DNA of 44,959 nucleotides, from contig JACPQU010000121.1 in the NCBI GenBank assembly GCA_016190305.1, forward strand, positions 1 to 44,959, given 5' to 3'. Source of the stretch: Bacillota bacterium. GTDB lineage: Bacteria; Bacillota; JACPQU01. The translations under genes and the position numbers were made by a program. A model generated the notes under the pieces. The model worked only from the letters and a program-made list of their open reading frames with translations. It had not been told where the DNA came from and ran no database searches. Of this stretch, positions 17,632 through 44,694 are shown piece by piece; within the stretch, counting starts at the first letter, position 1, and each line of letters opens with the position of its first letter.

Positions 17632-17740
17632 CGTGTCACCATCCTCTCCTGGCCTCGGGACTCAGGATGCTTTGATCCCGGCCCCAGCCCCCGCCCCTTC
17701 GATGATCCCGCCCGCCGCGCAGCCCGCTTCCCGCCGGCGC

Positions 17741-19916: not shown

Positions 19917-19943
19917 GGGCTTTCCCTCCTCTTCCCCCGCTGC

Positions 19944-25492: not shown

Positions 25493-25495
25493 GAC

Positions 25496-26350: not shown

Positions 26351-26401
26351 CTCCGTCCCACGCCGGCAGCCGGCGTAACCGTCTTACCAATCCGGGCGCC
26401 C

Positions 26402-26671: not shown

Positions 26672-26729
26672 GAACCTTCACCTCTCAAGGGTTGTCGATT
26701 GTGAAACCCCGCTGCACCGCCGGTCTCCG

Positions 26730-27917: not shown

Positions 27918-27988
27918 AAGTTAGGCTCCTCCTCTCCAAAGAACCGGTCGTTTAAGGTGACTTGTTCCGGCTTCCAACCGGCCCCAGC

Positions 27989-29173: not shown

Positions 29174-30126
29174 CCCTCCCTTGCTTGATCCTCTTCGTCG
29201 ACCGCCTGGGTTGCCCCGGTGATCCGGAACCCAAGCCTCCTCCCCAGGTGACCCGGGCGGGCCGTGAACTTGCTTCTTCCGGCCACCAGGACTTCCAGGT
29301 CGCGGTCCCACCGGTTGTCCAGCCTGAGCACGTCGCCCAGCCTGAGCTCGGAAAACTCCCTCATGGAGAGCTGGGTCTTGCCGAGAAGAACGATCATCGG
29401 AACGTGGACCCCGGAGACCCTGTCGGAGAGGGCCTGGGCGGCCTTTCCGGGAGACTCTCGAAAGTCCCCCGTGATCCACTCCTGGGCGGTGAGGCGCGGC
29501 AACACCGGCTCGGCCACCTTGAAGGGGAGGCAGAGGTGCATGGCCCCGCTGTAATCCCCCACCAGCACCGAGAAGGAGATCACCGCGACGATCTCGTTGG
29601 CCGGGATGAGCTGGGCCACCAGGGGCGATGTCTCCAGGGACTCCAGCCGGGGGGAGAGCCGGGCGATCCTCCGCCAGGCCTCCACGAAGGTATCCAGGCT
29701 GCCTTCCAGGAGCTTCTCCAGGACCGTTTTCTCGATGTCGGTGGCCGGCCGCAGCACCGGCGGGTACTGACCGGGCCCGCCCATCAGCCGGTCGATGATC
29801 GGAAAGGCGATCCCGGCGTCGAGCTGGAGCAGCACGTTTCCGGGGAGGGGCGGGAGGCTGATCACCGCCACGGCTGCCGCCTTATCGATGGTCTTGGCGA
29901 ACTCGTCGTAGCTCGCCTGGTTCACCCCCAGGACGTTGACCTGGCACAGGGCGCTCAAGCGACCCGAGAAATGGCTTGCCAGGAGGCGTCCCAGGTTCTC
30001 GTGGAGCATGTAGAGGGTGCGCACATGGTCCTTCCCGAACTTGTCCGGGCGGCGGAAGTCGTAGCCGCGGACCATCTTGCGGCGTGAAGTCTTGCCGGTG
30101 GCATGGACGGCCTCCAATGGTTGCAC
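29152..30126 (-). CDS. fliM: Flagellar motor switch protein FliM (short N-terminus)
   Basis: VRGYDFRRPDKFGKDHVRTLYMLHENLGRLLASHFSGRL and downstream FliM/SpoA features. GTG start. There is no in-frame upstream start before fliL. Confidence 0.93.
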   Translation of the reverse strand: MQPLEAVHATGKTSRRKMVRGYDFRRPDKFGKDHVRTLYMLHENLGRLLASHFSGRLSALCQVNVLGVNQASYDEFAKTIDKAAAVAVISLPPLPGNVLLQLDAGIAFPIIDRLMGGPGQYPPVLRPATDIEKTVLEKLLEGSLDTFVEAWRRIARLSPRLESLETSPLVAQLIPANEIVAVISFSVLVGDYSGAMHLCLPFKVAEPVLPRLTAQEWITGDFRESPGKAAQALSDRVSGVHVPMIVLLGKTQLSMREFSELRLGDVLRLDNRWDRDLEVLVAGRSKFTARPGHLGRRLGFRITGATQAVDEEDQAREGWAWTDS

Positions 30127-30197
30127 CCCCTGTCCCTTCTCGACTCTTACCCGACTCTTGCCCGACCCTTGCCCGGGGCGGGCCCTCGCGCCCCGCC

Positions 30198-30632
30198 CTA
30201 CTGCACGACCAGGTCGGTCAGGAACACCCGCAGGGCTCCTTCCGCCTCCATCAACTCTCCGATCCGCTCCCCGATACGGCGGCTCATACCCGACTCTCCG
30301 CCGGGAGCCTCCAGCTCCGAACTGAACATCTCGCGGAGAGTTCCTAGGATCACATGGCGGATCTTGGGCTTGATCCCCTCCAACTTCGAGGCCTCGGCGG
30401 CTCCGCCCGGAATCTCAACCACCACCGAAACCTTGATCAGGCGCCGCCCCCCCGGATCGGCCAGGTTCGTAACGAAACTTCCCAGATCGACCATCACCGG
30501 CTCCGGAGGCGGACCCGCCTCGGCCAGGGACGGATCGGCCTCCTTGTTCATCAACCAGTAGGCGCCGGCCCCCCCGCCGAGGATCCCCAGCGCCAGGACG
30601 GTCACCAGGGCCCGCTTCAGAAATCGCTTCAA
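30198..30632 (-). CDS. fliL: Flagellar basal body-associated protein FliL
   Basis: One N-terminal TM helix, then VDLGSFVTNLADPGGRRLIKVSVVVEI...IRHVILGTLRE...FLTDLVVQ, the typical FliL pattern. Confidence 0.9.
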   Translation of the reverse strand: MKRFLKRALVTVLALGILGGGAGAYWLMNKEADPSLAEAGPPPEPVMVDLGSFVTNLADPGGRRLIKVSVVVEIPGGAAEASKLEGIKPKIRHVILGTLREMFSSELEAPGGESGMSRRIGERIGELMEAEGALRVFLTDLVVQ

Positions 30633-30695
30633 CTCGTCCCTTCACCACCGTTCCATCCGTCTAAGACCTTAAACGCCTGGATCCCTTCGCCAACG

Positions 30696-31493
30696 TCATC
30701 GGTTCAAACCGCCTTTGAGCTCGGCGCTGTCAGGCTCCTGATCCTTCCAACTCAGCCTCATCAGCACCACGTCCACGCGGCGGTTGAGCTGTCTTCCCGC
30801 TTCGTCTCCATTGCCGGTCAGCGGCCGGTATTCCCCGTAGCCCGCCGCGGAGAGGCGCCGGGGATCCAGCCCGTGGATCTCCACGAAGCGTCTGATCACC
30901 GTGGTAGCCCGGGCCGTGGACAGCTCCCAGTTGGTGGGGAACTGGATGGTCTGGATCGGCACGTTGTCCGTGTGCCCCTCGACCCGCACCTCGTTCGGGA
31001 TCCCGGCCAGCAGGGGGATGACGGAATCGACGATTCTTAGGGCTTCCGGCTTCAGTTCCGCCTTGCCGCTTTCGAACAGGACGTTGGCGGCGAAGCGGAG
31101 GACCAGGCCGCGCTGGTGACGTTCCACCGCCACCTCGCTGGAGATCCCGGCCTGCTTGAGGAGCGCTAGAGCCGTCTGCTCCAGTTGCTCGAGCTGCTCC
31201 CGATCCCGCCGGTCCCGCTCCTCCTCCGGGGAGAGGGGTTCCTCCGGGGAGGGCGCCGGAACCAGGGCGTCCGGGGGCCGGGTCTCCAGGAGGGACGGCC
31301 CTCCCGGCAAGACCCCCAGGGCGCCCCGCAGCGACTCGGCGGCCTTCTGGAACTTGGTTGCATCCAGGGAGGCCAGGCTGAAAAGGAGCACGAAGAAGGT
31401 CAAGATCAGGGTGACCATATCCCCGTAGGTGACCATCCACAACGGCGCTCCTTTTCCTGCCGGCTGGCGGCCCCGCCTGGCCCTGGAAACCAC
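30696..31493 (-). CDS. motB: Flagellar stator protein MotB (OmpA-like C-terminus)
   Basis: APLWMVTYGDMVTLILTFFVLLFS carries the conserved Asp-containing TM helix. C-terminus GHTDNVPI...NWELSTARATTVIRRF...GYGEYRPL...NRRVDVV. Confidence 0.95.
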   Translation of the reverse strand: MVSRARRGRQPAGKGAPLWMVTYGDMVTLILTFFVLLFSLASLDATKFQKAAESLRGALGVLPGGPSLLETRPPDALVPAPSPEEPLSPEEERDRRDREQLEQLEQTALALLKQAGISSEVAVERHQRGLVLRFAANVLFESGKAELKPEALRIVDSVIPLLAGIPNEVRVEGHTDNVPIQTIQFPTNWELSTARATTVIRRFVEIHGLDPRRLSAAGYGEYRPLTGNGDEAGRQLNRRVDVVLMRLSWKDQEPDSAELKGGLNR

Positions 31494-32447
31494 CTAAGCC
31501 GCGCCCCCTTTTTCGGCGGCCGCCGGGCCGGAAGCCCGCCGCCCTTCGGCGGAGGGGGCCACCACAACCGCAGCACCCGCGGCACCCGCAGCCGCCGGAC
31601 CCCTTTTCGATTCCCGCCCCTTCTTTGCTCCCTGCTCCTTGCCTGCTCCCCGCTCCTTGCCTGCTCCCCGGCCGCCTGCACGCGCGGCCACCGAGTTCCG
31701 CAGTTTAGGCGCCAGGAACGCCTTCAGCTTCTCCTCCACGATCCTGGGGTTATCCCCGGCCTGGATGGACAGGATCCCCTCAATGACCACCTGTTTGATC
31801 AGGATCTCCTCGGAGCTCCGCACTCTCAGCTTCCCGGCCATGGGGATGAACACCAGGTTGGCCAGGAGCGCGCCGTAGAGGGTGGTGATCAGGGCCAGGG
31901 CCATCCCCGGACCGATCTGGTCGGGGCGGTCAAGGTTCTGCAGCATCTGGATCAGGCCGATCAGGGTGCCGATCATTCCGAACGCGGGGGCGAGGGCCCC
32001 CATGGTCTCGAACATCCCCTGCCCCTCGCGGTGCCGCTCCTCCAGAAAGGCCAGTTCGGTATCCATGATGTTCCGCACCATCCCGGAGTCCGCACCGTCC
32101 ACCACCAGTTGGACCCCCTTGGCGAGGAAGGGATCGACCGCCCCCTGGGACACCTCGTGCTCCAAGGCCAGCAGGCCTTCCCGCCTGGCGCGGTCGGCCA
32201 GCCGGACCAGGGTGGCGATCAACTCGAGGGGATGGACCTCCCGCTTCAGGAAGACCTGTTTCAGAACCTTGAGCACGCCCACCAGCTTCCCCAGGGGATA
32301 GCTGAGGAGGGTGCCCGCGAAGGTGCCCCCCATAGTGATGGCCAGGGAGGGCAGATTCAGGAAGATCCCCCAGGATCCACCGGAGACCACCGCCCACGCC
32401 AGGAGGGCGACCCCCGATACGATCCCCGCTACTGAAGCCAGATCCAT
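31494..32447 (-). CDS. motA: Flagellar stator protein MotA (with low-complexity C-terminal tail)
   Basis: MDLASVAGIVSGVALLAWAV... and FGMIGTLIGLIQML..ALITTLYGALLANLVFIPMAGKL. Its stop abuts the motB GTG. Confidence 0.95.
   Translation of the reverse strand: MDLASVAGIVSGVALLAWAVVSGGSWGIFLNLPSLAITMGGTFAGTLLSYPLGKLVGVLKVLKQVFLKREVHPLELIATLVRLADRARREGLLALEHEVSQGAVDPFLAKGVQLVVDGADSGMVRNIMDTELAFLEERHREGQGMFETMGALAPAFGMIGTLIGLIQMLQNLDRPDQIGPGMALALITTLYGALLANLVFIPMAGKLRVRSSEEILIKQVVIEGILSIQAGDNPRIVEEKLKAFLAPKLRNSVAARAGGRGAGKERGAGKEQGAKKGRESKRGPAAAGAAGAAVVVAPSAEGRRASGPAAAEKGGAA
31634..31669 (-). repeat. 18-bp perfect tandem duplication (gctccttgcctgctcccc, two copies) in the motA tail
   Basis: Direct reading; encodes GAGKERGAGKEQ. 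Confidence 0.9.
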
Positions 32448-32644
32448 CCTTGTTCACCCCGCCCCTCGTGCATAATCACCCGCCGGCAGCCCCCACCGGC
32501 GACGGGCGGCGGAGCGGCGCGGCGGCGGCTCACCCGTTCTCAATCCGCCGCGCCGTTACCGCCTGACCAAAACCGCCGTACCTTTACACTTTTGCCTCTT
32601 CAGCACTGCCGTCCACCGTTCGGATACGGCGGTGCGGTTGAAAC

Positions 32645-32702
32645 CTTACCGTTCCGTCACCCCTTACCGCTTACCCCTTACCCTTACCGCGTACCGCTTA
32701 AC
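32645..32702 (-). repeat. Array of CTTACC (+ strand) / GGTAAG (minus strand) motifs with 6-7 nt period in the flgE-motA spacer
   Basis: Copies at 32645, 32663, 32670, 32677 and 32683, plus degenerate copies at 32691 and 32697. All three minus-strand frames contain stops here. Confidence 0.85.
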
Positions 32703-32750
32703 GTCTAAACATTCTTTAAGTTGCTCTGAAGTGTGAAGCCACCGGCAACA

Positions 32751-33971
32751 CTAACGTTTTATGTTAACAAGCTCCTGGAGCATCTCGTCCGAGGTGGTGA
32801 TGATCCGGGAGTTGGCCTGGAAACCCCGCTGGGTGATGATCATCTCGATGAACTCCTTGGAGATGTCGACGTTGGACATCTCCAAGGTTCCCGGTGCGAT
32901 CGTCCCCCGGCTGGCCTTTCCGGCTTCCCCCACCTGGGGCAGGCCCGAGTTGTTGGAGGCCACGTAGAGGTTCTCACCGCGCTTGAGAAGGCCGCCCGGG
33001 TTCGTGAAGCCCGTGATCGCCACCTGCCCGAGCACATTGGTCAACCCGTTGGAGAAGACCCCGGTGATCACCCCGGTGTCGTCGATGGTGAAAGTCTCCA
33101 GGGTTCCCATCGGGAAACCGTTGCGCTCGGAGACCGTCACGGTGCTCTGCCCCCCAAGCTGGGTGACGGTGGAGAAATCGGGGGTGATCGTCACCGGGTT
33201 GGCCCCGCTGGGGGTGAAGGTCAGCGGCCCGCCTGTGGACGCCTGGTACTGGCCCAGGGAATTGAAGGTCAAGGTGCCGGAGTTCCCGGCCAGCCCGGCC
33301 GGTCCGGAGGCCGACCAATTCCAAGTGTTGGGCGCCGCCGCCTTTTCGAAGGTGAGGGTCAGGGTGCTGGTGGCGCCCAAGGAATCGAAGACGTCGACGA
33401 CGGCGACATAGGTCTCCCCGGTGGCAGCGCCCGGGTTCAGGTTATTGGCGAAGGCGATCCGGTCGGTGGGGCTGGCGTTGATGCTCTCCCCCAGGCGAAC
33501 CCGGATGTCGGCCAGGTTTTCCTGGTCCCGGATGGGCAGGACCCCTGACTCCGCCACCCAGCCCTGGACCCGCAAGCCATTGCTCGTATCGGACAGGAAG
33601 CCGGCGGAATCGACCTCGAAGGCCCCGCTCCGCGAATAAACGATCCGTTGGCCGTCCGCCATGGTGAAGAACCCGTTCCCCTGGATGGACAGGTCGGTCA
33701 TCTTGCCGGTGTTCTGCAGGTTGCCCTGGCCGTGGATCACGTCGATCCCGGAGATGGCCATCCCCAGGCCGATCTGCTGCGGGTTGGTGCCCCCGCGGTC
33801 AGCCATCGGGGCCGAGGCCCCCCTGGTGGTTTGGTAGAAGAGCTCCCGGAAGGTGACCCGTCCGGCCTTGAAGCCGATGGTGTTCACGTTGGCGATGTTG
33901 TTTCCGATCACATCCATCCGGGTCTGGTGGTTCCGCAACCCGGTCACCCCTGCGAACAGCGAACGCATCAT
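32751..33971 (-). CDS. flgE: Flagellar hook protein FlgE
   Basis: MMRSLFAGVTGLRNHQTRMDVIGNNIANVNTIGFK at the N-terminus. C-terminus LEMSNVDISKEFIEMIITQRGFQANSRIITTSDEMLQELVNIKR. Confidence 0.96.
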   Translation of the reverse strand: MMRSLFAGVTGLRNHQTRMDVIGNNIANVNTIGFKAGRVTFRELFYQTTRGASAPMADRGGTNPQQIGLGMAISGIDVIHGQGNLQNTGKMTDLSIQGNGFFTMADGQRIVYSRSGAFEVDSAGFLSDTSNGLRVQGWVAESGVLPIRDQENLADIRVRLGESINASPTDRIAFANNLNPGAATGETYVAVVDVFDSLGATSTLTLTFEKAAAPNTWNWSASGPAGLAGNSGTLTFNSLGQYQASTGGPLTFTPSGANPVTITPDFSTVTQLGGQSTVTVSERNGFPMGTLETFTIDDTGVITGVFSNGLTNVLGQVAITGFTNPGGLLKRGENLYVASNNSGLPQVGEAGKASRGTIAPGTLEMSNVDISKEFIEMIITQRGFQANSRIITTSDEMLQELVNIKR

Positions 33972-34155
33972 CCGTTGATCATCCTCCGCGGCGGGCGGCG
34001 CCTTTCAGTCCTTCTCAGCGCCTCGGCCTCCTTCGAGAGGTCCTGCCGGTTTAAACCCGCCAAGATATTGGGTCAAGCTTGGAAAACGCTCGTTCCGTCG
34101 GTATTGCTTATACAATGCTGTACCCGTAGAGTGGCGATGAGTTTTACGGCGATGC

Positions 34156-34596
34156 TCAAGCGATGACGGTGCTGTCGATGTTGCTGAACACGCCGCTTCT
34201 GCTGCGCGGTTGGGGCACCGCCGTGATCACGGTCCGGTTCTGCACGCTCACCACCAGCGCCAGGTCCTCAAGCAGGATCAGGGACTCCCGGCTCCCTCGC
34301 TCCGCGGCCTTCGACACCGCCCTGGCGAGACGATCCCCAGCCTCAGCTTCAAGGCGCACCTGCCCCTGCTCCAGCCGTTTACGGGCGTGGGCGGAGAAGA
34401 CTACGCCCTTTTCCGCCGCCGCCGAGAGGGCGTCGGCGAAGGTGCCTGGGCCAGTTCGCCGGGCAGGCGCCTGCCCGGCGGCCGCGGTTATTGCCTCGAT
34501 CCCTCCGGAGACGGTCTTCCCGACGGCCATCCGCCCCAGATCCATCTGCCCCGCGCCCAAGCCGGCCGGCTGGTTGATCCCCGAAGCGGCGCTCAT
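34156..34596 (-). CDS. Flagellar operon protein of the TIGR02530-like family (between flgD and flgE)
   Basis: VVFSAHARKRLEQGQVRL....SLILLEDLALVVSVQNRTVITAV......VFSNIDSTVI matches my memory of this family. 4-nt overlap with the flgD stop. Confidence 0.7.
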   Translation of the reverse strand: MSAASGINQPAGLGAGQMDLGRMAVGKTVSGGIEAITAAAGQAPARRTGPGTFADALSAAAEKGVVFSAHARKRLEQGQVRLEAEAGDRLARAVSKAAERGSRESLILLEDLALVVSVQNRTVITAVPQPRSRSGVFSNIDSTVIA

Positions 34597-35117
34597 TCCT
34601 GCCCGCCTCCCCCGTAACCCACCGTGATGATCCGGGCCGGGTCCACCGCTCGTTCGTCGACCAGAACCAGGGCTTGGCCCTGCTCCAGCTTCAGACCGGT
34701 GACCGTCCCCGAAAACGGGATCCCGGTTTCCGGATCTTCCACGGTAACCGCACGCCCGACCAGACCGACCAGACCGCTCAGGGTTCCCCCCGGCGAGGCC
34801 CAGAACTCTTCCATCTTCCGAAGGGCTCCGTTCAACTCCCCCAGTTGCTGGAGGAGGGTGAAGGTGGCCAGTTGCTCCAGGAACCCCTGGTTATCGGTGG
34901 GTTCCATGGGGTTTTGATACCTGAGCTGGGCGGACAACAGCTTGAGAAAGGATACCTGGTCAAGCGCCCCCGGAGTCGCCGCGCGCTGGGTTCCCCCGGT
35001 TGACCCGGAGCCCTGCCCGGTTGCGGCTGCAACTGTTCCGGTTCCCCTAAGCGGAAACCACGCCGGTGAAAGGCCGATCCCCGTATCACCCATCCCCTGC
35101 CACTCCTTTCCGGTCAA
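34593..35117 (-). CDS. flgD: Flagellar hook capping/assembly protein FlgD
   Basis: DQVSFLKLLSAQLRYQNPMEPTDNQGFLEQLATFTLLQQL is the FlgD signature. Confidence 0.93.
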   Translation of the reverse strand: MTGKEWQGMGDTGIGLSPAWFPLRGTGTVAAATGQGSGSTGGTQRAATPGALDQVSFLKLLSAQLRYQNPMEPTDNQGFLEQLATFTLLQQLGELNGALRKMEEFWASPGGTLSGLVGLVGRAVTVEDPETGIPFSGTVTGLKLEQGQALVLVDERAVDPARIITVGYGGGGQE

Positions 35118-35120
35118 TCG

Positions 35121-36815
35121 TCAAGCGAGTAAGTCGAGTACCCGGGCGAGGCCGCCCGGCGCCAGGATCCCGCCGACCGCGGACCCGGGGAGTTCCTCCC
35201 CGCTTCGGACATCTTTCGGCCGCCCATGGACGCCGTTTGCTCCACTTCCTTCCAGAGACCACGGAAACGGCTTTCCGGCTGGATCACCACCCTGATCACC
35301 GCCCGGGGCGCCCGCTGTTTCCCCACCGGCGGCACCGCCGCCCGGCTCCAGGCCCGGTGCCCATCCGGGCCCTCCGCCCGGTTTAGCGTTTAGTTCAACC
35401 CCGGCGACCAAGACCCGGAAGTCGCCCACCTTCAACCCATCCCGGCCCAGGTGTTCCCTCAGTTCCGGCAATACCTGTTCCAGAAATTTTCCCGCCGTGG
35501 TATCGGCGGTCGTGAACCTGGCCGCGAGGGTTCCCTCGGACATCCTGAGCTTGATCCCCAGGGTGCCCAGCTCCTCGGAGTCCACCGCAAGGTGGACCTC
35601 CGGATTCGAATCCAGCTGGGACCACCGGGCGCGGTAGCCTGCGGCGGGCGAATCCTCCGGAGCGAAGACCCCGGTTTCTCCCGCCGACCCGGTGGCCGTG
35701 CCTTCTCTGGTTGCCTGGCCTCCCTGCGCACCGGTTGGGCCTTGTCCGGCCAGCGCCGAGGCCGGCGCGATCGCGCTTTCTTCCCCGGAGGGTGCTGCCG
35801 GTGCCCATGCTGGTGTCCAGGCCGGCCCCCCGGTCCTGCCTTTCCCGGCGGTGGTCCCGGCCGGTGGGCCTTCAACGGCGGTGAGCGCGGCCGGATCCGC
35901 ACCCTTGCCGCCCGGCTCCGGAGACCTTTCATTCTTCCGATTTCCCCTAGGCTCCCAAGTGCTGGAGGGCTCCTGGGTTACGGAGGGTTCCCGGATGGCG
36001 GAGGGCGCATGGTTCAAGGAAGTCTCCCGGATACCGGAATTTGTCCCTGGGTATACCCTGGTTACCTGTTTTGCAGCATCTTCGCCGGTTTGAACCGGGG
36101 ACCATGACCCGGCTCCGGCGCCGTTGCCGGTACCGGAGTGTCTTCGGGATTCCCCGGAGGCGCCCGGCTCGGATGCAGCCAGCTCCTTGGATCCGGCCGG
36201 ACCATCGGCGGCGATAGCACTTTCGGACACGCCCGGATGGCCGGGATCCTCCGGTGCGCCATGGGCGAGTAGACTGCCCGGGGCTCCCGGCTTGCTGGTA
36301 TCGGCCGCTCCTTCAGAAGCGGTGACTGAACCGTGGATCGACCTCCCGTCAACCGGAATTCCGCCGGTGAACTTCCCGTCAGCGGCCTCCCGGTGATCCG
36401 CGGCCCGGAAGACGTTTACCCAGGCAGCCCCGGCCTGGGATGGATCGAGCGCGTCGAGGGGTCTTTCCCGTTCCTCAGCCAAAGTTGCCGGTTCCGGTTT
36501 GATGTCTTGATCGGAATCATTGGAGCCGCGGGTTCCGGTGAACGACCCTCCGGTCCTGGCATCCATCCATTCCTTGAAGGATCCCGCCGCGGCTCCCTCG
36601 TCCCCCCCATTCCCAGCCCTGCTTCCCGGGCCGGCGGCGGCCTTACACCGGGGAACTTCCGCCTTGGGCACCCGCTGAGGGCGGACGGAGGTTTGCGGGG
36701 CGGTTTGGACAGCCGCCCGGACGGTGACTTGTTGATTGGACATCACCTTTGGTTCAATGACGATTTGCATCATTTCACCTCCCCTCTCCAGCCGGTGGAT
36801 TGTCGGGCTAATCAT
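35121..36815 (-). CDS. fliK: Flagellar hook-length control protein FliK
   Basis: Long Pro/Gly/Ala-rich region followed by a C-terminal Flg_hook-type domain (LAVDSEELGTLGIKLRMSEGTLAARFTTADTTAGKFLEQVLPELREHLGRDGLKVGDFRV). The alternative start at 36773 (MMQIV) has a strong GGAGG. Confidence 0.85.
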   Translation of the reverse strand: MISPTIHRLERGGEMMQIVIEPKVMSNQQVTVRAAVQTAPQTSVRPQRVPKAEVPRCKAAAGPGSRAGNGGDEGAAAGSFKEWMDARTGGSFTGTRGSNDSDQDIKPEPATLAEERERPLDALDPSQAGAAWVNVFRAADHREAADGKFTGGIPVDGRSIHGSVTASEGAADTSKPGAPGSLLAHGAPEDPGHPGVSESAIAADGPAGSKELAASEPGASGESRRHSGTGNGAGAGSWSPVQTGEDAAKQVTRVYPGTNSGIRETSLNHAPSAIREPSVTQEPSSTWEPRGNRKNERSPEPGGKGADPAALTAVEGPPAGTTAGKGRTGGPAWTPAWAPAAPSGEESAIAPASALAGQGPTGAQGGQATREGTATGSAGETGVFAPEDSPAAGYRARWSQLDSNPEVHLAVDSEELGTLGIKLRMSEGTLAARFTTADTTAGKFLEQVLPELREHLGRDGLKVGDFRVLVAGVELNAKPGGGPGWAPGLEPGGGAAGGETAGAPGGDQGGDPAGKPFPWSLEGSGANGVHGRPKDVRSGEELPGSAVGGILAPGGLARVLDLLA

Positions 36816-37371
36816 GGTTCAGGTTGTTGCTGTCCTGGCGCGAGAGGAAAGCCGCGTCAAGCTCTTTTTGGAGACGCCGTCCCTCCGCGGCCTGGAAAAT
36901 GGCACGCCTCCGTTCATCCAGTCGCCTCAAGCCGCGAATACCCCTGCGGGCCGCTTCGGCTGCCCCGGCCAGCCGCCGCTCCTCCTCCCTGACCCTGGAC
37001 AGGTGACCGCGGCTTTCCGCGACCCGCCTCTCCAGGGCCAGGCACCAGCGGCTCCAGCTTTCCAGTTCATCCCCGGTGGCCCAGCGGGCCGGGCCGGGTA
37101 CAGCGGGGGAATCCGTTCCGGTTGCGGCGTTGATCCCTGTACCGACGGTCCCGGCACCGTTGATTACCGTCGGCCCCCCCATCCCCGCCGGCCGGCCGAT
37201 CCCCCCGGGCATGCATCCCCGCCAGGACTCCAGTTCAAGTTCCCGGCCCTCTACGTCGGCGGCGGCCTCCCGGCTTCTTCGAACGGAACTCTCCAGATCC
37301 AGCCGGGCCATCTTTTCGAGGAGTTCCTTCACCCTGAGGACCTGGGCCAATCGAAACCTGTAGCCGCTCAC
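36808..37371 (-). CDS. fliJ: Flagellar export protein FliJ (with Gly/Thr/Pro-rich insert)
   Basis: GTG at 37371 overlaps the fliI TGA (GTGA). YRFRLAQVLRVKELLEKMARLDLESS is a FliJ-type coiled-coil start. The track ORF to 37590 is an upstream extension through the fliI 3' end. Confidence 0.8.
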   Translation of the reverse strand: MSGYRFRLAQVLRVKELLEKMARLDLESSVRRSREAAADVEGRELELESWRGCMPGGIGRPAGMGGPTVINGAGTVGTGINAATGTDSPAVPGPARWATGDELESWSRWCLALERRVAESRGHLSRVREEERRLAGAAEAARRGIRGLRRLDERRRAIFQAAEGRRLQKELDAAFLSRQDSNNLNHD

Positions 37372-38726
37372 GGTTGAGCCTCTCCTTTCCGGCCCTTGGA
37401 CAGGAGCCCGAGGAGGTGCAGCGTGTCCTCGAAGGTGGCGCCATCCTCGGGCGGCTGCCGCAGGAGGTCCATCACGGCGCCATGGTTGGCCCGCGCCAGG
37501 TCGATCTCGGGATTGGCGCCTTCGACATAGGCCCCAATGTTGATGAGATCCTCGGCTTCCCTGTAGGTCGCCAGGATCCGGCGCACCCACCCCGCCCGCT
37601 CCCGGTGCTCAGGCGTCACGAGGTCCCGCATGAGCCTGCTCACGCTGCCGAGGACGTCCACCGCCGGGTAGTGGTTGCGGGAGGCCAGATCCCTCGAGAG
37701 AAAGATGTGACCGTCGAGGAGCCCCCTCACCGCGTCACTGATCGGCTCGCCGGGGTCGTCCCCCTCGACGAGGACGGTGTAGAATCCCGTGATGCTCCCC
37801 TCGCCGGTCCGCCCCGCCCGTTCCAGGAGCCTGGGAAGCTGTCCGAAGACCGAGGGCGTGTAGCCGCGGGCCGTGGGCGGTTCCCCGGCGGCCAGGCCCA
37901 CTTCCCGGAGGGCCATGGCGAAGCGGGTCAGGGAATCCATCAGGAGGAGCACGTCCAAGCCTCGATCCCGGTAGAACTCGGCAAGGGCCGTGGCCACCTG
38001 GGCCGCTTTGACCCGCTCCATCGCGGGCCGGTCGGAGGTAGCCGCGACCACCACGCTCCGGGCCAGGCCTTCCGGGCCCAGATCCCGCTCCAGAAAGTCC
38101 TTGACCTCGCGCCCCCGCTCACCCACCAGGGCGATCACGGCCACGTCGGCTTCGGTGTGGCGCGCGATCATCCCGAGCAGGGTGCTCTTGCCGACCCCGC
38201 TCCCCGAAAAGATCCCGATCCTCTGCCCTCGGCCACAGGTGAGCAGGGCATCCACCGCCCGGACTCCCACTCCCAGCCGCTGGGTGATCCGGACCCTGTC
38301 CAGGGGGGATGGGCCGGAGGCCTCCACCGGGCGCCGCTCCTCGACCGCCGTCGATCCCTGCCCATCGATGGGTCGCCCGAGCCCGTCCAGGACCCGGCCC
38401 AGCATGTCCGGGCCCACCGGCACGGTGAAGGACTCGCCCGAAGCCAGAACCTCGGCGCCCGGGGAAATGGAGCGCATCTCCCCCAGGGGGAGGAGCAGAA
38501 CGGAGTTCCCCCGAAATCCGACCACCTCGGCCTTGATCTCCCTGCCGTTTTCCGCGAGCACCGTGCACAGTTCGCCCAACCTGGCCTTCGGCCCCAGGGA
38601 CTCGATGGTCAGACCGACCACCTTGCTCACCCGCCCCCGGTAGGCGTACGGGTCGCACGCGGCCACCGCCTGGAACCATCCGTCCCAGGAGAGCCCTCCC
38701 TCCCGGGTCAACCCGTGAAACATCAA
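37368..38726 (-). CDS. fliI: Flagellum-specific ATPase FliI
   Basis: Walker A GSGVGKSTLLGMIARH, Walker B VLLLMDSLTRFAMALRE, and an F1-ATPase-like fold pattern. Confidence 0.97.
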   Translation of the reverse strand: MMFHGLTREGGLSWDGWFQAVAACDPYAYRGRVSKVVGLTIESLGPKARLGELCTVLAENGREIKAEVVGFRGNSVLLLPLGEMRSISPGAEVLASGESFTVPVGPDMLGRVLDGLGRPIDGQGSTAVEERRPVEASGPSPLDRVRITQRLGVGVRAVDALLTCGRGQRIGIFSGSGVGKSTLLGMIARHTEADVAVIALVGERGREVKDFLERDLGPEGLARSVVVAATSDRPAMERVKAAQVATALAEFYRDRGLDVLLLMDSLTRFAMALREVGLAAGEPPTARGYTPSVFGQLPRLLERAGRTGEGSITGFYTVLVEGDDPGEPISDAVRGLLDGHIFLSRDLASRNHYPAVDVLGSVSRLMRDLVTPEHRERAGWVRRILATYREAEDLINIGAYVEGANPEIDLARANHGAVMDLLRQPPEDGATFEDTLHLLGLLSKGRKGEAQP

Positions 38727-39961
38727 GCCCCTCGCCTCCCGCCGCCCGCCCGCCGGGATCCGCCGGCTTTCGATTCCGCCGCATCCTTTGCCGCCGTTCC
38801 AGCCGCCGCCCTCGCGGGCGCATCCCCTGCGGCAGCGCCCCCGGGCAGGCCCCCGGCAGCGCCGTCCACCGCTCTTTCCGCCGCGTCCCCGCCAGCGTCC
38901 CAGGTATCACCGTGCGTAACGCGCTCCGCGGCACCGTACGCAGGGCCGTAAGTAACGCCGTCCTCCCCGCGGCTTTCACCCTCGGGCTCTCCCTCCGTCT
39001 CCAGCCCGGCTTCCCGGCGGAGCCGCCGCTCGATGTTTTTCAACTGGATCCCAATCCGGGCGTCCACCTCTCCCATCGGTGTCTCCACCACGCACCCACC
39101 CTGCTCCACCCGGTTGTCCGGAACGATCCGCAGGCCGGGGTTCGCCCCTCCCTCCCCGCGGCCGGGCAATTCCTTTTCCCTGGCGCGCAAGGTGGGCACG
39201 TCCACCGGATTGGCGCGCAGGGTGATCCCGTCCAAGTCCCGCAGGGGGGCCAGGACATGGGAAGCCAGGTGCAGCACACCCTGGGGCGATAGGGAGATCT
39301 CGCGCAGGAGAATCTTCTGGGCGATGGCCACCGCCAGTCGGACGATCTCCATCTGGCCGGCCTGGATGACCCCTCTTGTCCCTTGGATGGCCTTTTCCCG
39401 GATCGCCTCGGCTTCCGCCATGACCCGCCCGGCTTCCGCCCGGGCCGCCTCCAGGATTGGCTTCATCTCCGCCTCCATCTCGGCCCGCCCCATGGCCAGG
39501 CCGGCGGCGTAGCCGTCCAGGTATCCCCTGTCGACGCTCGCTCTGGTCCCGTCTGCCAGGTCTTCCACCTCCCCCTGATCGCCCGCCTCTCCCGGCGGCC
39601 GGGAATCATAGCCCTCTTCCCTTTCCTTCACCAGCACCGCCGCGCCGTGTGGACCATGCTTGCCGTTGAAACGTTGTGCCCCGACTGGACGAAGCGCACC
39701 GCTCCCGCTCCCCGCGTCCTCCCCTCCTGCTGCGCCCGCAACGCCACCCACACCAGCAACTCCACCCGTACCCACGACGGCGCCTACGCCCGCAACGCCG
39801 CCTACACGGGCCACAAGGTCGGAGAACGGTTCCATGTTCCACGGTCCGGCACTGCCGTCGTCCAGGGACACCCGCCGGCGCCCCCGGTCGAAAGCCCACG
39901 GTTTGATAACCTTGCTCCACCCGCGCCGGTCGAAGTCAGGCAATGATCTCATCTCCCTCAC
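38723..39961 (-). CDS. fliH: Flagellar assembly protein FliH (long low-complexity N- and C-terminal regions)
   Basis: Core GYLDGYAAGLAMGRAEMEAE...VRLAVAIAQKILLREISLSPQGVLHLASHVL...LRANPVDV...IVPDNRVEQGGCVVETPMGEVDARIGIQL. The start is uncertain (GTG 39961, ATG 39952 or TTG 39943). Confidence 0.85.
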   Translation of the reverse strand: MREMRSLPDFDRRGWSKVIKPWAFDRGRRRVSLDDGSAGPWNMEPFSDLVARVGGVAGVGAVVGTGGVAGVGGVAGAAGGEDAGSGSGALRPVGAQRFNGKHGPHGAAVLVKEREEGYDSRPPGEAGDQGEVEDLADGTRASVDRGYLDGYAAGLAMGRAEMEAEMKPILEAARAEAGRVMAEAEAIREKAIQGTRGVIQAGQMEIVRLAVAIAQKILLREISLSPQGVLHLASHVLAPLRDLDGITLRANPVDVPTLRAREKELPGRGEGGANPGLRIVPDNRVEQGGCVVETPMGEVDARIGIQLKNIERRLRREAGLETEGEPEGESRGEDGVTYGPAYGAAERVTHGDTWDAGGDAAERAVDGAAGGLPGGAAAGDAPARAAAGTAAKDAAESKAGGSRRAGGGRRGA

Positions 39962-40979
39962 CCCTGGCGATGAGGATCTCCCCTTCTTCTTCGAGGCGCC
40001 GGATGACGCTCACGACCTTCTGCTGGGCCTCCTCCACCTCGCGCAGGCGGACCGGCCCGAGGTACTCCATGTCGTCCCGCAGGTTCTCCCCGGCGCGCTG
40101 GGAGAGGTTCTTGAAGATCTTTGCCTTGACGTCGTCGCTGGCCACCTTGAGGGCGACCGGGAGGTCCTTGGTGAGATCGATCTCCCTCAGGGCCTGCTGC
40201 AGCGAGCGATCGTCGAGGAGCACGAGGTCCTCGAAGACGAAGAGCTTTTTCTTGATCTCCTCGGTCAGGGCGGGATCCTCGCGCTCCAGGTTTTCCAGAA
40301 TGCCCTTCTCGGTGGAGCGGTCGACGTGGTTCAGCACCTGAACTACCGCGTCAATCCCCCCGGCGCTCGAGTAGTCCTGGATGAGCAGGGAGGAGATCTT
40401 GCGTTCGAGCACCCCTTCCACGCTCTGGATCACCTCCGGGGAGGTCTTCTTCATGGTGGCGATCCGGCGGACGACGTCGGTCTGCACCTGGAGGCTGAGC
40501 GAGGCGAGGATCGACGAGGCCTGGTTGGGGTTGAGGTGGGAGATGATCAGGGCGATGGTCTGGGGGTGCTCGTTCTGGAGGAAGTTGGCCAGTTGTCCGG
40601 GATCGGCCTTGCGCGCCAGGTCGAACGGGCGAAGCTGAAGAGACGAGTTCATCTTGCGGATGATGTCTTGGGCCCGCGGGTGCCCGAGGGCCTTCTCCAG
40701 CATGTCCCGCGCGTATTCCACCCCGCCTTTGGCCATGTACTCACCGGCCAGAAGGGATTCCATGAACTCGTCCAGCACCGAGGCCGTCACTTCCGGCTTG
40801 ACCTGGCCCACGCCGGAGATCTCCTGGCCGATCCGCTCGATAGCCGCCTCGGGAAGCTCCTTGATCACCCGGGCCGCCAGTTCCGTTCCCAGGGAGATCA
40901 GGGTGATCGCCGCCTTCTGGGCGCCGGTAAGATCTACTTTGCTTCTGGCCTTCAACGCCGCCTCCGCCACTGGCCACAC
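39936..40979 (-). CDS. fliG: Flagellar motor switch protein FliG
   Basis: LTGAQKAAITLISLGTELAARVIKELPEAAIERIGQEI and the C-terminal torque helix region (LSQRAGENLRDDMEYLGPVRLREVEEAQQKVVSVIRRLEEEGEI). The GTG at 40970 has better SD spacing than 40979. Confidence 0.96.
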   Translation of the reverse strand: MWPVAEAALKARSKVDLTGAQKAAITLISLGTELAARVIKELPEAAIERIGQEISGVGQVKPEVTASVLDEFMESLLAGEYMAKGGVEYARDMLEKALGHPRAQDIIRKMNSSLQLRPFDLARKADPGQLANFLQNEHPQTIALIISHLNPNQASSILASLSLQVQTDVVRRIATMKKTSPEVIQSVEGVLERKISSLLIQDYSSAGGIDAVVQVLNHVDRSTEKGILENLEREDPALTEEIKKKLFVFEDLVLLDDRSLQQALREIDLTKDLPVALKVASDDVKAKIFKNLSQRAGENLRDDMEYLGPVRLREVEEAQQKVVSVIRRLEEEGEILIARGEGDEIIA

Positions 40980-41031
40980 TCCTAGCCTGAAAGTTTATCC
41001 CTGGTCCCGAAAACCTTGGTTGCTTCCGGGT

Positions 41032-41069
41032 TTCCCTAAACTGATCCGGCCTTCCCTAAACTGATCCGG
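41032..41069. repeat. 18-bp perfect direct repeat (ttccctaaactgatccgg, two copies, 2-nt spacer) in the fliF-fliG spacer
   Basis: Copies at 41032-41049 and 41052-41069, read directly. Confidence 0.9.
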
Positions 41070-41144
41070 AAAATCCGGCATCGCGTCAGGTGATTCCAGA
41101 AATGCTGGCGGTTTGCCGAATGCCCGCCGGCCAATCCCCGAACG

Positions 41145-42776
41145 CTACCGATCCTCGGCGAGCCAGGTCTTGATCAGGTTGGCGACCTGGCCCGGCTTCT
41201 CCCGGGCCACCTCCTGGAGATTCTGCCGGAGGCGAAGGCGGCCGGCCTCGCCGGATGCCGCGGTCAGCGGGAAGGGGATCAACTCGCCCCCGCCGCCCTT
41301 CATCCCGCCCGCATCCCCGGCGGCCCCCGCCGCGGCGCGGCGGCCGCGCCGCCGGAGCAGCAGCACAATCGCCGCAACGGCGGCGAGCAGGGCGCCCGAA
41401 CCAGCAGCGCCCCAGGCCAGGATGCGCCGGCGTGCATCCGCCGCTTCACGACGGGCGAGGTCATCCTTCATGACCTCGGCAAGATCGGAGTTGAAGGGGA
41501 GGGAGGTCACCGTCACCACGTCGTCCCGCTTCGGGTCGAATCCGATCGCCGCCGAAACCAATGCCATCAAGGAGCTCTCTTCCTCCGGGGAGAGGGGCTT
41601 GTTCACCGCCACGGCCACCGTCAGACGCCTGGTGCTTCCGGGGGCGACCAGGATCTTCTCCCGAACCTGGTTGACCTCGTAGTTGTTAACCTTCTCCACT
41701 TTTTCCCAGTTGGACGGCTCGCCGCCGTTCAGCATCCCGGCCCCGCCCGCAGCCCCAGGCTCGGCATCGGTTCCGGCATTGGCCCAGGTTCCAGGGATCC
41801 CGCCGACGCTGCCCCCGGGCAGGCCGCGGTAGGCCTCCTTATACTCGCGGGTGCTCCTGAGGATCCCCTCTGTTCCGCCGTCGCCTGGCTCGTAGGTGAC
41901 CCGTTCGATCTCCTTCAGCTCCGGGTCGAGCTCGGCGCTGACCCGGGTGGAGACGTTACCCGGTCCCACCACCTGCTCCAGCAGCGTCTGGAGCCTGGAC
42001 TCGAGCCGGTTTTCGAATTCCAGGTTGAGCGCCAGCCAGGCCTGGGATCCCCTCGCCCCTCCGGCCCCGATACCGGCGGAAGCGGTGCCGGTGTCGACCC
42101 CCGCGAACAGATCCGAATCCCCCGCCAGGACCCGGCCCCGGGAGTCGACCACCGTCACACCATCCGCCGACAGCCCCTCCACGCTCCCCGAAACCAGGTG
42201 GACGATCCCCTGGACCTGGTCCGGCTGCAGGAACCCGAAGCCCTTCATCCGCACAAAGACGGACGCCGTCGATGGTTTCCGCTCCCGGACGAATACGGTT
42301 TCTTCCGGCAGGACGATGTGGACCCTGGCCGAATCGACACCGTTGATCTGACCGATGGTGCGCTCCAGTTCACCCTGGAGCGCCCGGACCCGATTCACCC
42401 GACGGTCGAAATCGGTGAGACCGAAGCCGCTCCGATCCAGCAGTTCGTAGCCAGGCCCCCCGTCACGGGGCAGCCCTTCGGCCGCCAGGTTCAGCCGCAC
42501 CTGGTGCACGCGCGCGGAAGCCACCTTGATGCTCCTCCCATCGTCGGCGACGGTGTAGGGGATCCCCGCTCCTTCCAGCCAGACCGCCACCTCTGAGGCA
42601 TCACGCATGTCCAGGTTGGCATAGAGGGTGGCGAGGTCCGGCTCGGCCGCAGCCCGCAGACCCCATACGGCCGCGAACGGAAGGAGCAGGAGGGCGGCGG
42701 CGGCAACCGCGAAGCGCCTTCCGCCATGCCGCTTGATGGACTCCCTGATCCTTTCCAGCACCAGTTCCCAGCTCAA
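41145..42776 (-). CDS. fliF: Flagellar MS-ring protein FliF
   Basis: N-terminal TM helix, then LYANLDMRDASEVAVWLEGAGIPYTVADDGRSIKV...RLNLAAEGLP. A C-terminal TM helix and cytoplasmic tail (VANLIKTWLAED). TTG start. Confidence 0.95.
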   Translation of the reverse strand: MSWELVLERIRESIKRHGGRRFAVAAAALLLLPFAAVWGLRAAAEPDLATLYANLDMRDASEVAVWLEGAGIPYTVADDGRSIKVASARVHQVRLNLAAEGLPRDGGPGYELLDRSGFGLTDFDRRVNRVRALQGELERTIGQINGVDSARVHIVLPEETVFVRERKPSTASVFVRMKGFGFLQPDQVQGIVHLVSGSVEGLSADGVTVVDSRGRVLAGDSDLFAGVDTGTASAGIGAGGARGSQAWLALNLEFENRLESRLQTLLEQVVGPGNVSTRVSAELDPELKEIERVTYEPGDGGTEGILRSTREYKEAYRGLPGGSVGGIPGTWANAGTDAEPGAAGGAGMLNGGEPSNWEKVEKVNNYEVNQVREKILVAPGSTRRLTVAVAVNKPLSPEEESSLMALVSAAIGFDPKRDDVVTVTSLPFNSDLAEVMKDDLARREAADARRRILAWGAAGSGALLAAVAAIVLLLRRRGRRAAAGAAGDAGGMKGGGGELIPFPLTAASGEAGRLRLRQNLQEVAREKPGQVANLIKTWLAEDR

Positions 42777-42914
42777 CCGTCCTCACCCCCGGGCTCCAAA
42801 CCCTGATCCTGCTGCCGTCGCCTCTCCCGGCGCTGCTCACTTATGCGTACGTCTATTTACCCCGTTTCCCATTCCGCCGTGCGCCTTCCCTCGAACTCCC
42901 AGCCCTCACGTCCC

Positions 42915-43292
42915 CTACAGGGGCATCCGCATGATCTCCTGGTAGGCTTCGAGGATCTTGTTCCGGATCTGGAGGGCGAGCTGGAGGGAGAGGTCCGCTT
43001 TCTCAGCCGTCAACACGACCTCGTGCAGATCCTCCACCCTTCCGGAAGCCACCTCCATGGCGCCCTGATCGGCCTTCAACTGCCAATCGTTGACCTCGGC
43101 CAGGGCGTTCTTCAGCACCTCTCCAAAGGATTCCGAACCCCCTTCGATCCTTCCCGAGGGGCGGGTTCCCAGTAAGGGGCTCCCCGTGCCCCACCAGGTG
43201 GAACCGTTCACGCCTGAAACCGCCAAGGTTCGATCGCTCCCCGCGTATGGCCGGATAATGTAAAATCTTAAAAAGTTCAATAAATACCTCAT
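42915..43292 (-). CDS. fliE: Flagellar hook-basal body protein FliE
   Basis: C-terminal FGEVLKNALAEVNDWQLKADQGAMEVASGRVEDLHEVVLTAEKADLSLQLALQIRNKILEAYQEIMRMPL. The first ~22 codons of the track ORF lie in AT-rich sequence with no SD. The TTG at 43226 (GGGGAG 10 nt upstream) is the more likely start. Confidence 0.88.
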   Translation of the reverse strand: MRYLLNFLRFYIIRPYAGSDRTLAVSGVNGSTWWGTGSPLLGTRPSGRIEGGSESFGEVLKNALAEVNDWQLKADQGAMEVASGRVEDLHEVVLTAEKADLSLQLALQIRNKILEAYQEIMRMPL

Positions 43293-43410
43293 TTATCGGC
43301 TCTATCTTTACGATATAATTAGTGAACAGTGGTCACCGGGACGGTGCGGCAAAGCTGGCGAGCTTTGACGCTCGCAACTCCACCGGCACCGTCCACAGAC
43401 CAGACCGAAC

Positions 43411-43860
43411 TCAGGCGCGTCCCATCTCCAGGGTTCGGAGCGCCGTCTCCTTGGCAGTGTTGAAGACGGCGAGGTTGGCCTCGTAGGCCCGGGTCGCGGC
43501 AAGCAGGTCGATCATCTCGGCAACCAGGTCGACGTTGGGCAGAAGGACGTTTCCGTCCGCGCCCGCTTGTGGGTGGCCAGGATCGTAGAGGATTCTAGGG
43601 GGCGATGGATCCCGAACGATGGCGGCGACTTGAACTCCGCCTTCAAAAACAGGCAGAGCCTCCTGTCCACCCGACAGGAGTCTGGCAAAGAGGGAGGTCT
43701 CCTTCCGCGGGGCTAAAATGGGCAGCTGCCGTTGGTAGGGACCTCCTTCTACCGTCCTGGTAGAATCGAGGTTTGCCATGTTATTGGCGACCAGATCCAG
43801 CCTCAGTCTTTGGGCCGCGAGGCCGGAGGCGCTCACGTCCAGAAGTCCGAAGAGGCTCAT
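43411..43860 (-). CDS. flgC: Flagellar basal-body rod protein FlgC
   Basis: SASGLAAQRLRLDLVANNMANLDSTRT..GGPYQRQ and C-terminal NVDLVAEMIDLLAATRAYEANLAVFNTAKE. Confidence 0.96.
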   Translation of the reverse strand: MSLFGLLDVSASGLAAQRLRLDLVANNMANLDSTRTVEGGPYQRQLPILAPRKETSLFARLLSGGQEALPVFEGGVQVAAIVRDPSPPRILYDPGHPQAGADGNVLLPNVDLVAEMIDLLAATRAYEANLAVFNTAKETALRTLEMGRA

Positions 43861-43926
43861 CGATCAGGCCTCCTTTATTTTTGGGAGTCCGGAGCCCGCC
43901 GCGGGGCGGGGCGCGACCCTTGCCCG

Positions 43927-44403
43927 TTAGCGCTTTCCCTCGCTGGCGGCGAGGCGAAGCGCCCCGAGCCGATCTCTCACCTGCCTTGTCAGGGCCTGGT
44001 ACCAGATCAAATCCCTGGCCAGCGCCGTCATTTCCCTTTCCAGGTTCACGTCGTTGCCGTCCCGCCTGGTGCTTGCATCATTTCCGGAGCCCTGCCGGAG
44101 AACCAAGGGCCTGGTTTGGGACCGGGGCTCCTCGCCCCCCATATGGAGAGGATGGGTACCTTCCAGAGAGAGCGCGGCGAACCTTAGATCACCAACCCCA
44201 GCTCGTGTGGAGCGATGGGAAACGGCTTCCGGAGACCGACCGGCTTGTTCAAGACGCTGCCGGAAAGAAACCGTTCGGCTTTTGTACCCCGGGGTCTCAG
44301 CGTTGGCCACGTTGTCGGCGATGGCCTGTCTTTGCAGGGAAGAAACCTTGAGCGAATCCTCCAGGGCTTGCAGGGCCCGGCCCCCCAGAACCTTGTTCAG
44401 CAA
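43927..44403 (-). CDS. flgB: Flagellar basal-body rod protein FlgB
   Basis: LQRQAIADNVANAETPGYKSRTVSF and C-terminal NDVNLEREMTALARDLIWYQALTRQV. TTG start with AGGAGG 7 nt upstream. Confidence 0.93.
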   Translation of the reverse strand: MLNKVLGGRALQALEDSLKVSSLQRQAIADNVANAETPGYKSRTVSFRQRLEQAGRSPEAVSHRSTRAGVGDLRFAALSLEGTHPLHMGGEEPRSQTRPLVLRQGSGNDASTRRDGNDVNLEREMTALARDLIWYQALTRQVRDRLGALRLAASEGKR

Positions 44404-44435
44404 TGGGATCCCTCCTTTCGGTCAAGAATGATGGT

Positions 44436-44478
44436 GGAAACAAATAGGGCCTACCTCATAGTCCCGCCGAGGTAGGCC
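44436..44478 (-). terminator. Intrinsic terminator acting as the riboswitch expression platform in the flgB leader
   Basis: Minus strand GGCCTACCTC-(11 nt loop)-GAGGTAGGCC (arms at 44469-44478 and 44448-44457) followed by CTATTTGTTTCC. It ends about 35 nt before the flgB start, leaving no room for a promoter between them. Confidence 0.7.
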
Positions 44479-44489
44479 TAAAAACCGGC

Positions 44490-44590
44490 TCTTCCGTCGG
44501 TAGCCCGGCCATCCTTACGGATCCGTGGCTTTGCGCCCCCGCCTTTCGACGGGTTTGCCTTTTCGGGAAGCTCCCACAACGTGCTTCAGT
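44490..44590 (-). promoter_or_regulatory. c-di-GMP-I (GEMM-I) riboswitch aptamer
   Basis: Minus strand AAAAGGCAAACC-CGUC-GAAA-GGCG-GGGGCGCAAAGCC-ACGGAUCCGUAAGGAUGGCCG-GGCUACCGACGG. Hallmark GEMM-I blocks are present: GCAAACC, a GNRA-capped hairpin, GGxCGCAAAGCC, and 3' GGGYUACCGAYGG. Compare V. cholerae Vc2 as I recall it: GGGCAAACCAUUCGAAAGAGUGGGACGCAAAGCC...GGGGUUACCGAUGG. Confidence 0.8.
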
Positions 44591-44640
44591 TGGCGTCCGC
44601 TAAAACCGACTCTGCGTCATAGAACAGAGAAGTTAACGTC

Positions 44641-44669
44641 ACTGTAGACTATGTTTTGACAGTTGTCAA
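44641..44669 (-). promoter_or_regulatory. SigmaA-type promoter of the flgB operon
   Basis: Minus strand TTGACA (44669-44664), 17-nt spacer, TACAGT (44646-44641). An A/T-rich tract (AATTTTTTAGAGGAAA) lies upstream. The implied leader is about 230 nt and contains the riboswitch. Confidence 0.6.
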
Positions 44670-44694
44670 CAGTTTCCTCTAAAAAATTCGTCCT

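Follow-up and report, generated by a model that had tools for sequence, protein, structure and literature searches.

The closest described counterpart of the locus reported here is Cd1 (Cdi-1-3), a class I cyclic di-GMP (c-di-GMP) riboswitch upstream of the Clostridioides difficile flgB operon, which acts as an OFF switch by termination and gates sigD (PMC6366702). All seven functional class I riboswitches of C. difficile are OFF switches (PMC6366702). The association of the GEMM motif with flgB was reported in 2007 (PMC1950547), and flgB is listed among the gene families regulated by GEMM (PMC1950547, Table 2). A further point of reference is Vc2 of Vibrio cholerae, the structural reference of the Rfam family RF01051, which docks its GAAA loop into an 11-nucleotide (nt) receptor and acts without a terminator. 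In the present study, a 44,959-bp contig (JACPQU010000121.1; hereafter "the window"; 64.7% GC) from a Bacillota metagenome-assembled genome (MAG) was scanned on both strands, and the minus-strand leader of its flgB gene was found to carry a c-di-GMP-I (GEMM-I) aptamer followed by a hairpin with a U-rich tail. We consider it probable that this leader is a canonical c-di-GMP-I transcriptional OFF switch that operates by termination.

As with Cd1, the flgB leader has a class I aptamer ahead of a putative terminator, the early operon carries a sigD-type factor, and the late genes would be indirectly controlled via that factor, so that the parallel with Cd1 drawn in a preliminary description of this stretch is apt. 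The OFF logic of Cd1 has been demonstrated, however, whereas that of the window is predicted from sequence. The two also differ in that the window shows no sign of a flagellar phase-variation switch or of a link to a toxin, in that the second hairpin of the window aptamer is short, GNRA-capped and without a tetraloop receptor, and in the host, i.e., a deep-branching, 65% GC Firmicutes MAG with a FlgC about 50% identical to that of Thermaerobacter. More precisely, this FlgC shows only 47-57% identity to its nearest proteins (the named ones being from Thermaerobacter), and FlgB is 100% identical to a "Firmicutes bacterium" MAG protein that bears the name flagellar basal body rod protein FlgB. 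With Vc2 the window shares G20, A47, C92, the C44-G83 pair, the GAAA loop and the AAA linker, but not the receptor. The arrangement itself is already well known, and its presence and context would not surprise a specialist; the window adds one instance of a c-di-GMP riboswitch before an early flagellar operon, in a poorly sampled Thermaerobacter-related Firmicutes lineage.

Table 1. Features of the flgB leader and of the flagellar genes behind it (positions in the window; all features read on the minus strand).
Feature	Positions	Strand	Basis
Promoter-like site, sigma-70-type: -35 TTGACA (44669-44664), 17-nt spacer, -10 TACAGT (44646-44641)	44641..44669	minus	10/12 matches
5′-proximal stem-loop of the leader, CUCUGUUCUAUGACGCAGAG	44610..44629	minus	present in every predicted fold
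c-di-GMP-I (GEMM-I) aptamer with full P1 (Rfam match 44568-44495)	44570..44491	minus	Rfam, own covariance model, folding
Candidate antiterminator 5′ strand CCGACGGAAGAGCC, overlapping the P1 3′ strand; pairs with GGCCUACCUCGG (44478-44467)	44487..44500	minus	folding
Putative intrinsic-terminator hairpin: 5′ arm GGCCUACCUCG, loop GCGGGACUA, 3′ arm UGAGGUAGGCC	44448..44478	minus	folding, inverted repeat
U-rich tail CUAUUUGUUUCC, 7 U in 12 nt	44436..44447	minus	sequence
Ribosome-binding site AGGAGGG (44416-44410) and flgB TTG start codon (44403-44401)	44401..44416	minus	sequence
Same-strand early flagellar array, presumably leader-gated	16861..44403	minus	Pfam
Sigma-28/SigD-type promoter-like TAAA-N17-CCGATA, just upstream of flgM (16761-16417)	16812..16838	minus	1 match vs 0.01 expected by chance

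The element is a c-di-GMP-I (GEMM-I) aptamer located in the 5′ untranslated region between the promoter-like site and flgB, which agrees with the placement of this class ahead of genes with motility, membrane-related or environmental functions. An Rfam cmscan of the whole window at gathering thresholds (GA), with clan competition applied, yielded a single match, i.e., to RF03167 (c-di-GMP-I-GGC) of clan CL00126, which covered the full-length model (positions 1-80) with 71.3 bits against a GA of 59 and an E-value of 4.7e-15. One more member of this clan passed its own GA and was hidden by clan competition; it is almost certainly RF01051 (GA 35), on which similar aptamers from relatives score 52-72 bits. 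A permissive Rfam scan of 44380-44720 gave no further credible match, and our own covariance model scored the window aptamer at 86.3 bits. The preliminary description had quoted an RNA sequence that was indeed found on the minus strand (44563-44494) and had assigned it to GEMM-I; the class stands, with RF03167 rather than RF01051 as the top model.

In isolation the aptamer folds as the family structure (free energy, dG, of -37.6). GEMM has been defined by a first hairpin with stems of 2 and 6 bp, an internal loop of 3 nt and a GNRA loop, and by an AAA linker to a second hairpin (PMC1950547), and this architecture is present as GC-AAA-CCCGUC-GAAA-GGCGGG-GGC-GC, AAA and a second hairpin, with the stem P1 (44570-44564 with 44499-44491) closing the structure. 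The first hairpin, CCCGUC-GAAA-GGCGGG, spans 44553-44538 and leads into the AAA linker, while the second (44530-44502) is GUAA-capped and reads GGAUCC-GUAA-GGAU-GG-CC. The ligand is contacted by G20, A47 and C92, and C44-G83 forms an interhelical pair that is universally conserved (PMC4744006, PMC5888326); all of these nucleotides are kept in the window (G20 at 44559, C44 at 44535, A47 at 44532, G83 at 44509 and C92 at 44500), and the aptamer would be expected to bind c-di-GMP.

Aptamers of this kind recur before flgB in related genomes. When a covariance model built from five aptamers was searched in 80 FlgC-selected GTDB species genomes, an aptamer was located just upstream of flgB in 10 of them (L008, Neomoorella sulfitireducens, as well as L009, L010, L018, L025, L027, L071, L073, L075 and L082), and an eleventh genome (L038, a Halanaerobiales MAG) carried two aptamers about 1.7 kb upstream of flgB (at 95-179 and 264-348). 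The L082 leader holds two tandem aptamers directly upstream of flgB (1672-1765 and 1808-1901). Four of the five closest FlgC relatives, including Thermaerobacter marianensis DSM 12885, likewise have an aptamer before flgB, and in T. marianensis and other Bacillota (L200, L202-L204 and the ten genomes above) the position is the same as in the window. Several of these relatives possess the tetraloop receptor, unlike the window. Across 12 aligned flgB-associated aptamers, 97.7% of the pair cells were standard and compensatory changes were found in 11 of 18 pairs; none of 500 shuffles reached the observed values, and slid controls paired at no more than 41.6%. G20, C44, A47, G83 and C92 were invariant in all 12. 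The riboswitch is not universal among relatives, since an Rfam scan of L001-L003 (the closest FlgB homologues, at 40-41% identity, with gaps of 360-420 nt upstream of flgB) gave no match. A metagenome scan for the aptamer core returned 80 GEMM-I loci, none followed by flgB or flgC within 1.5 kb. Taken together, the window and the aptamer-bearing relatives (Thermaerobacter and about a dozen other Bacillota lineages) show that arrangements of the Cd1 type occur widely across Bacillota rather than being confined to C. difficile.

The top rank of RF03167 called for a reading of its "GGC" label, which was derived by comparing the consensus lines of RF01051 and RF03167. Their conserved columns differ only at CGC[A]AAG versus CGC[G]AAG, i.e., at the column corresponding to A47 of Vc2. 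The window reads CGCAAAG, with A at 44532, and its alignment to RF03167 shows a mismatch exactly there; what it has in common with the RF03167 scaffold is the included P1 stem and the short second hairpin. RF03167 is also the top model for flgB-associated aptamers with A at that column (L025, L018 and L038b), which argues that the ranking reflects the scaffold and not the pocket, while RF01051 is the top model for L027 (72 bits) and L071 (67 bits; GA 35). Judged by these alignments, the RF03167 rank is a model artefact and the pocket is canonical c-di-GMP-I, so the label was not taken at face value: comparison of the consensus lines and of the relatives spoke against it, the window having A instead of the variant-defining G. 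Loci at which RF03167 outranked RF01051 were the window (44495-44568, minus strand), L025 (1941-2025), L018 (366-448) and L038 (268-343).

GEMM-I variants with changed specificity do exist (PMC7266159), and RF03167 is the best model for the window; nevertheless, a specificity variant of the c-di-GMP-I-GGC or c-AMP-GMP type, sensing something other than c-di-GMP, is hardly credible here. The variant-defining column holds A in the window, and the A-bearing relatives rank on RF03167 in the same way. Moreover, position 20 is G and not A as in c-AMP-GMP riboswitches (GEMM-Ib), a G20A rule that reportedly goes back to work by Kellenberger and by Nelson in 2015. Clan competition can thus attach the "GGC" label to aptamers with a canonical pocket, an annotation pitfall; with automated labels of this kind it is advisable to inspect the A47 column first and only then to postulate a different ligand.

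Between the aptamer and flgB lies a hairpin of 11 bp (including one G-U pair) with a 9-nt loop and a dG of -20.4 kcal/mol with flanks, which was also recovered as an inverted repeat (I3; 10 nt, 100% complementary). When all 44,959 bases were scanned on both strands, i.e., about 90 kb, under stringent requirements (perfect stem of at least 8 bp, loop of 3-12 nt, 6 or more T among the 10 nt that follow), the site at 44478-44436 was the only one found. The stem begins 16 nt past the Rfam match, about 33 nt separate the end of the tail from the flgB TTG, and the hairpin shares no nucleotide with the aptamer, having its own complete 5′ arm. A hairpin with a U-rich tail downstream of the aptamer, some 35 nt from the flgB start, had been described beforehand, and both the element and its spacing agree with these values. 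A separate hairpin with a U-run is likewise found between aptamer and flgB in most relatives' leaders, such as that of Thermaerobacter (CCGCCCGUGGUGC...GCGGGCGG, then UUUGCUUUU). It is at the hairpin at 44478-44436 that transcription would be expected to terminate.

These elements suggest the following course of events. Transcription would begin at the sigma-70-type promoter, near 44634. With c-di-GMP bound, the aptamer would close P1, leaving GGCCUACCUCG free to pair with UGAGGUAGGCC, and the resulting 11-bp hairpin with its U-rich tail would stop transcription at about 44440, before flgB, releasing a leader RNA of about 195 nt. At low c-di-GMP, P1 would stay open and its 3′ strand (CCGACGGAAGAGCC) could pair with the terminator 5′ arm, so that the polymerase would read on into the early flagellar genes including that for a sigma-28-type factor, which would then activate late genes, flgM and flagellin among them. 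The P1 3′ strand (CCGA-C-GG-A-AG-A-GCC, 44500-44487) imperfectly repeats the sequence of the terminator 3′ arm (UGA-GG-U-AG-GCC), and the predicted antiterminator hairpin has a dG of -14.7 kcal/mol. When the transcript stops short of the 3′ arm, the minimum free energy (MFE) fold is the antiterminator one (-50.1 versus -43.0 with the aptamer enforced, a gap of 7 kcal/mol), whereas in the full leader less than 3 kcal/mol separates the antiterminator fold (-55.2) from the fold with both aptamer and terminator (-58.0), which suggests that the ligand binding energy could tip the balance. In these models the fold energies are compatible with the layout expected of a ligand-tipped OFF switch. A textbook antiterminator design is seen in L204, where CCGGGG stands at the aptamer 3′ end and again as the terminator 3′ arm, and L027 and L009 follow the same logic.

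Whether ON or OFF had been held undecidable from the sequence; the architecture and the relatives now tentatively favour OFF. This direction rests on the separate terminator together with the antiterminator candidate, on the Cd1 precedent and on the observation that motility usually falls as c-di-GMP rises. Several points weigh against the proposed OFF switch. As to the aptamer, clan competition masked the RF01051 score, so that its passage of the GA was deduced rather than read, and the 11-nt tetraloop receptor (CCUAAG...UAUGG) was looked for in the second hairpin and is absent; such a receptor is likely in about 50% of GEMM instances (PMC1950547), and a GAAA loop without it may confer an affinity differing from that of Vc2. 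As to the antiterminator, 10-19% of permuted terminator stems paired as well as the actual one (p about 0.1-0.19), so that in this GC-rich sequence the complementarity does not exceed chance. For the whole-leader MFE fold, which is without P1, the z-score is only -1.05, and global folding thus neither supports nor contradicts the switch. Close relatives of the window leader were sought among FlgB homologues and in a metagenome scan, and none was found, which leaves the expression platform without covariation support; the platforms of the relatives named above do not align with that of the window, except for part of the L018 promoter and 5′ leader. As to the terminator, the U-tail (CUAUUUGUUU) is interrupted and its U-run does not follow the stem immediately, and a generic terminator scan of the window did not call the site, its loop being longer than 8 nt. 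Finally, not every class I riboswitch is an OFF switch: Bc2 of B. thuringiensis is an ON switch, and Vc1 and Vc2 work without terminators (PMC6366702).

The precedent of Bc2 lends some interest to an ON switch, in which c-di-GMP binding would block the terminator and raise flagellar expression, as do the overlap of the terminator with the second hairpin in 78 of 322 GEMM instances (PMC1950547) and the resemblance of the aptamer segment GGCUACC to the terminator 5′ arm (GGCCUACC). Such a direction is nonetheless very unlikely here, given that the terminator lies 16 nt downstream with its own 5′ arm and is still contained in the aptamer-enforced fold (-58.0), that high c-di-GMP generally represses motility and that the flgB precedent is OFF. 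The preliminary description had suggested that GGCUACC and GGCCUACC compete for the same 3′ arm. This fails as the main mechanism, because the complete 5′ arm adjoins the 3′ arm, is perfectly complementary to it and would win, and because the alternative helix would still abut the U-run.

The interrupted tail and the missed call of the generic scan would also suit a leader in which the aptamer binds c-di-GMP while the hairpin is inefficient as a terminator, control being exerted via translation initiation, RNA stability or Rho. The full-length MFE fold has the P1 5′ strand (UCCC) base-paired to GGGA in the ribosome-binding region, L071 has about 33 nt from aptamer to start codon and lacks a terminator, and the Vibrio riboswitch Vc2, like Vc1, offers a precedent for terminator-free action. 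We nevertheless regard this as unlikely, since the hairpin with its U-run is unique in the window, since Thermaerobacter, L025 (with UUUGCUUUU and UAUUUUGUUAUUU, respectively, after the hairpins), L009, L008, L010 and L075 have hairpins with comparably interrupted U-tails at the corresponding place, and since the ribosome-binding site, 33 nt past the tail, stays unpaired in most folds. Judging from the folding models, the leader may have a translational component. As a separate observation, the ribosome-binding region CGAAAGGAGGG (44410-44420) nearly duplicates the aptamer segment CGAAAGGCGGG (44538-44548) on the minus strand.

The start of the leader is likewise delimited by sequence features. 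The sigma-70-like promoter pattern occurred at one site versus 0.3 expected in shuffles, and the transcription start is predicted near 44634, giving a leader of about 230 nt that ends at the TTG start (44403), the length that had been put forward beforehand. A terminator-like hairpin at 44724-44706, upstream of the promoter-like site, belongs to the preceding gene and separates the promoter-like site from it. A few nt past the predicted transcription start begins the 5′-proximal stem-loop, which may serve to stabilise the mRNA 5′ end. In an alignment with L018 (at about 320-345), UGUUCUAU, the -35 region and a portion of the 5′ leader are shared, which suggests that promoter and 5′ leader are homologous between the window and L018 beyond the aptamer.

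A decaying, non-functional remnant of a riboswitch would have its precedents, as 5 of 16 predicted C. difficile c-di-GMP riboswitches are non-functional (PMC6366702), and the element is missing in the nearest FlgB relatives (L001-L003). We find this highly improbable for the window, where all conserved blocks and pocket nucleotides are intact and the score is well over threshold, and the order of promoter, aptamer, hairpin and ribosome-binding site is kept in L018 and Thermaerobacter.

Downstream of the presumed OFF switch, the early array runs on the minus strand in the order flgB, flgC, fliE, fliF, fliG, fliH, fliI, an open reading frame (ORF) at the fliJ position, fliK, flgD, a gene for a small flagellar protein, flgE, motA, motB, fliL, fliM, fliN/Y, fliO-P, an ORF at the fliQ position, fliR, flhB, flhA, flhF, a PilZN-PilZ gene (20816-19944), a sigma-70-family factor gene at the sigD/fliA position (19916-19119), FapA, an ORF and a flgG-like gene. 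Pfam matches on the same strand place flgM, flgK, flgL, flagellin, a 1,855-aa glycosyltransferase/TPR protein, fliD and fliS, i.e., the late genes, after it. No further stringent hairpin with a U-run was found inside the array in the window, and the early genes are predicted to be co-transcribed as a single unit. The run of about 30 genes including sigD given in the preliminary description is essentially right by Pfam, with the qualification that the early operon probably ends before flgM and the late genes are under indirect control via the sigma factor. The sigma-28/SigD-type promoter-like site just upstream of flgM would fit such a division: through the operon-encoded factor, the riboswitch would then control the late genes indirectly. 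A weaker TAAA...TCGATGA is present upstream of flagellin, near 12960-12990.

The PilZN-PilZ protein (YcgR/MotI-like) is encoded directly upstream of the sigma factor gene, and its PilZ motifs are intact (RRQHVR for RxxxR and DLSAGG for DxSxxG), which makes c-di-GMP control of motility plausible in this organism. It resembles the YcgR/MotI-type brake in its domains and motifs and is a putative second, protein-level c-di-GMP input; a brake of that type is a protein effector on assembled motors and not part of the RNA switch. By its gene content, c-di-GMP may thus act on motility twice, i.e., through the RNA switch and through a PilZ brake whose synthesis that switch controls.

The aptamer is also flanked by a 12-nt direct repeat (AGAGUCGGUUUU / AGAGCCGGUUUU, AGAGYCGGUUUU; minus strand, 44613-44602 and 44492-44481). 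In several predicted folds one copy is paired to the other (UCGGUUUU with AGAGCCGG), in a helix that encloses the aptamer, replaces P1 and uses the antiterminator strand; the bracketing of the aptamer by the repeat may be due to chance. It seems quite unlikely, on this repeat and the PilZ gene, that the leader goes beyond a one-input switch, be it through the repeat helix as a second, ligand-independent or factor-dependent threshold layer or as part of a two-tier c-di-GMP circuit via the PilZ brake.

Among the late genes, the 1,855-aa protein (6243-11810, minus strand) lies between flagellin (12017-12841) and fliD (4890-6236). It combines GT4 and GT2 domains with many TPR repeats and is presumably a flagellin glycosylation enzyme.

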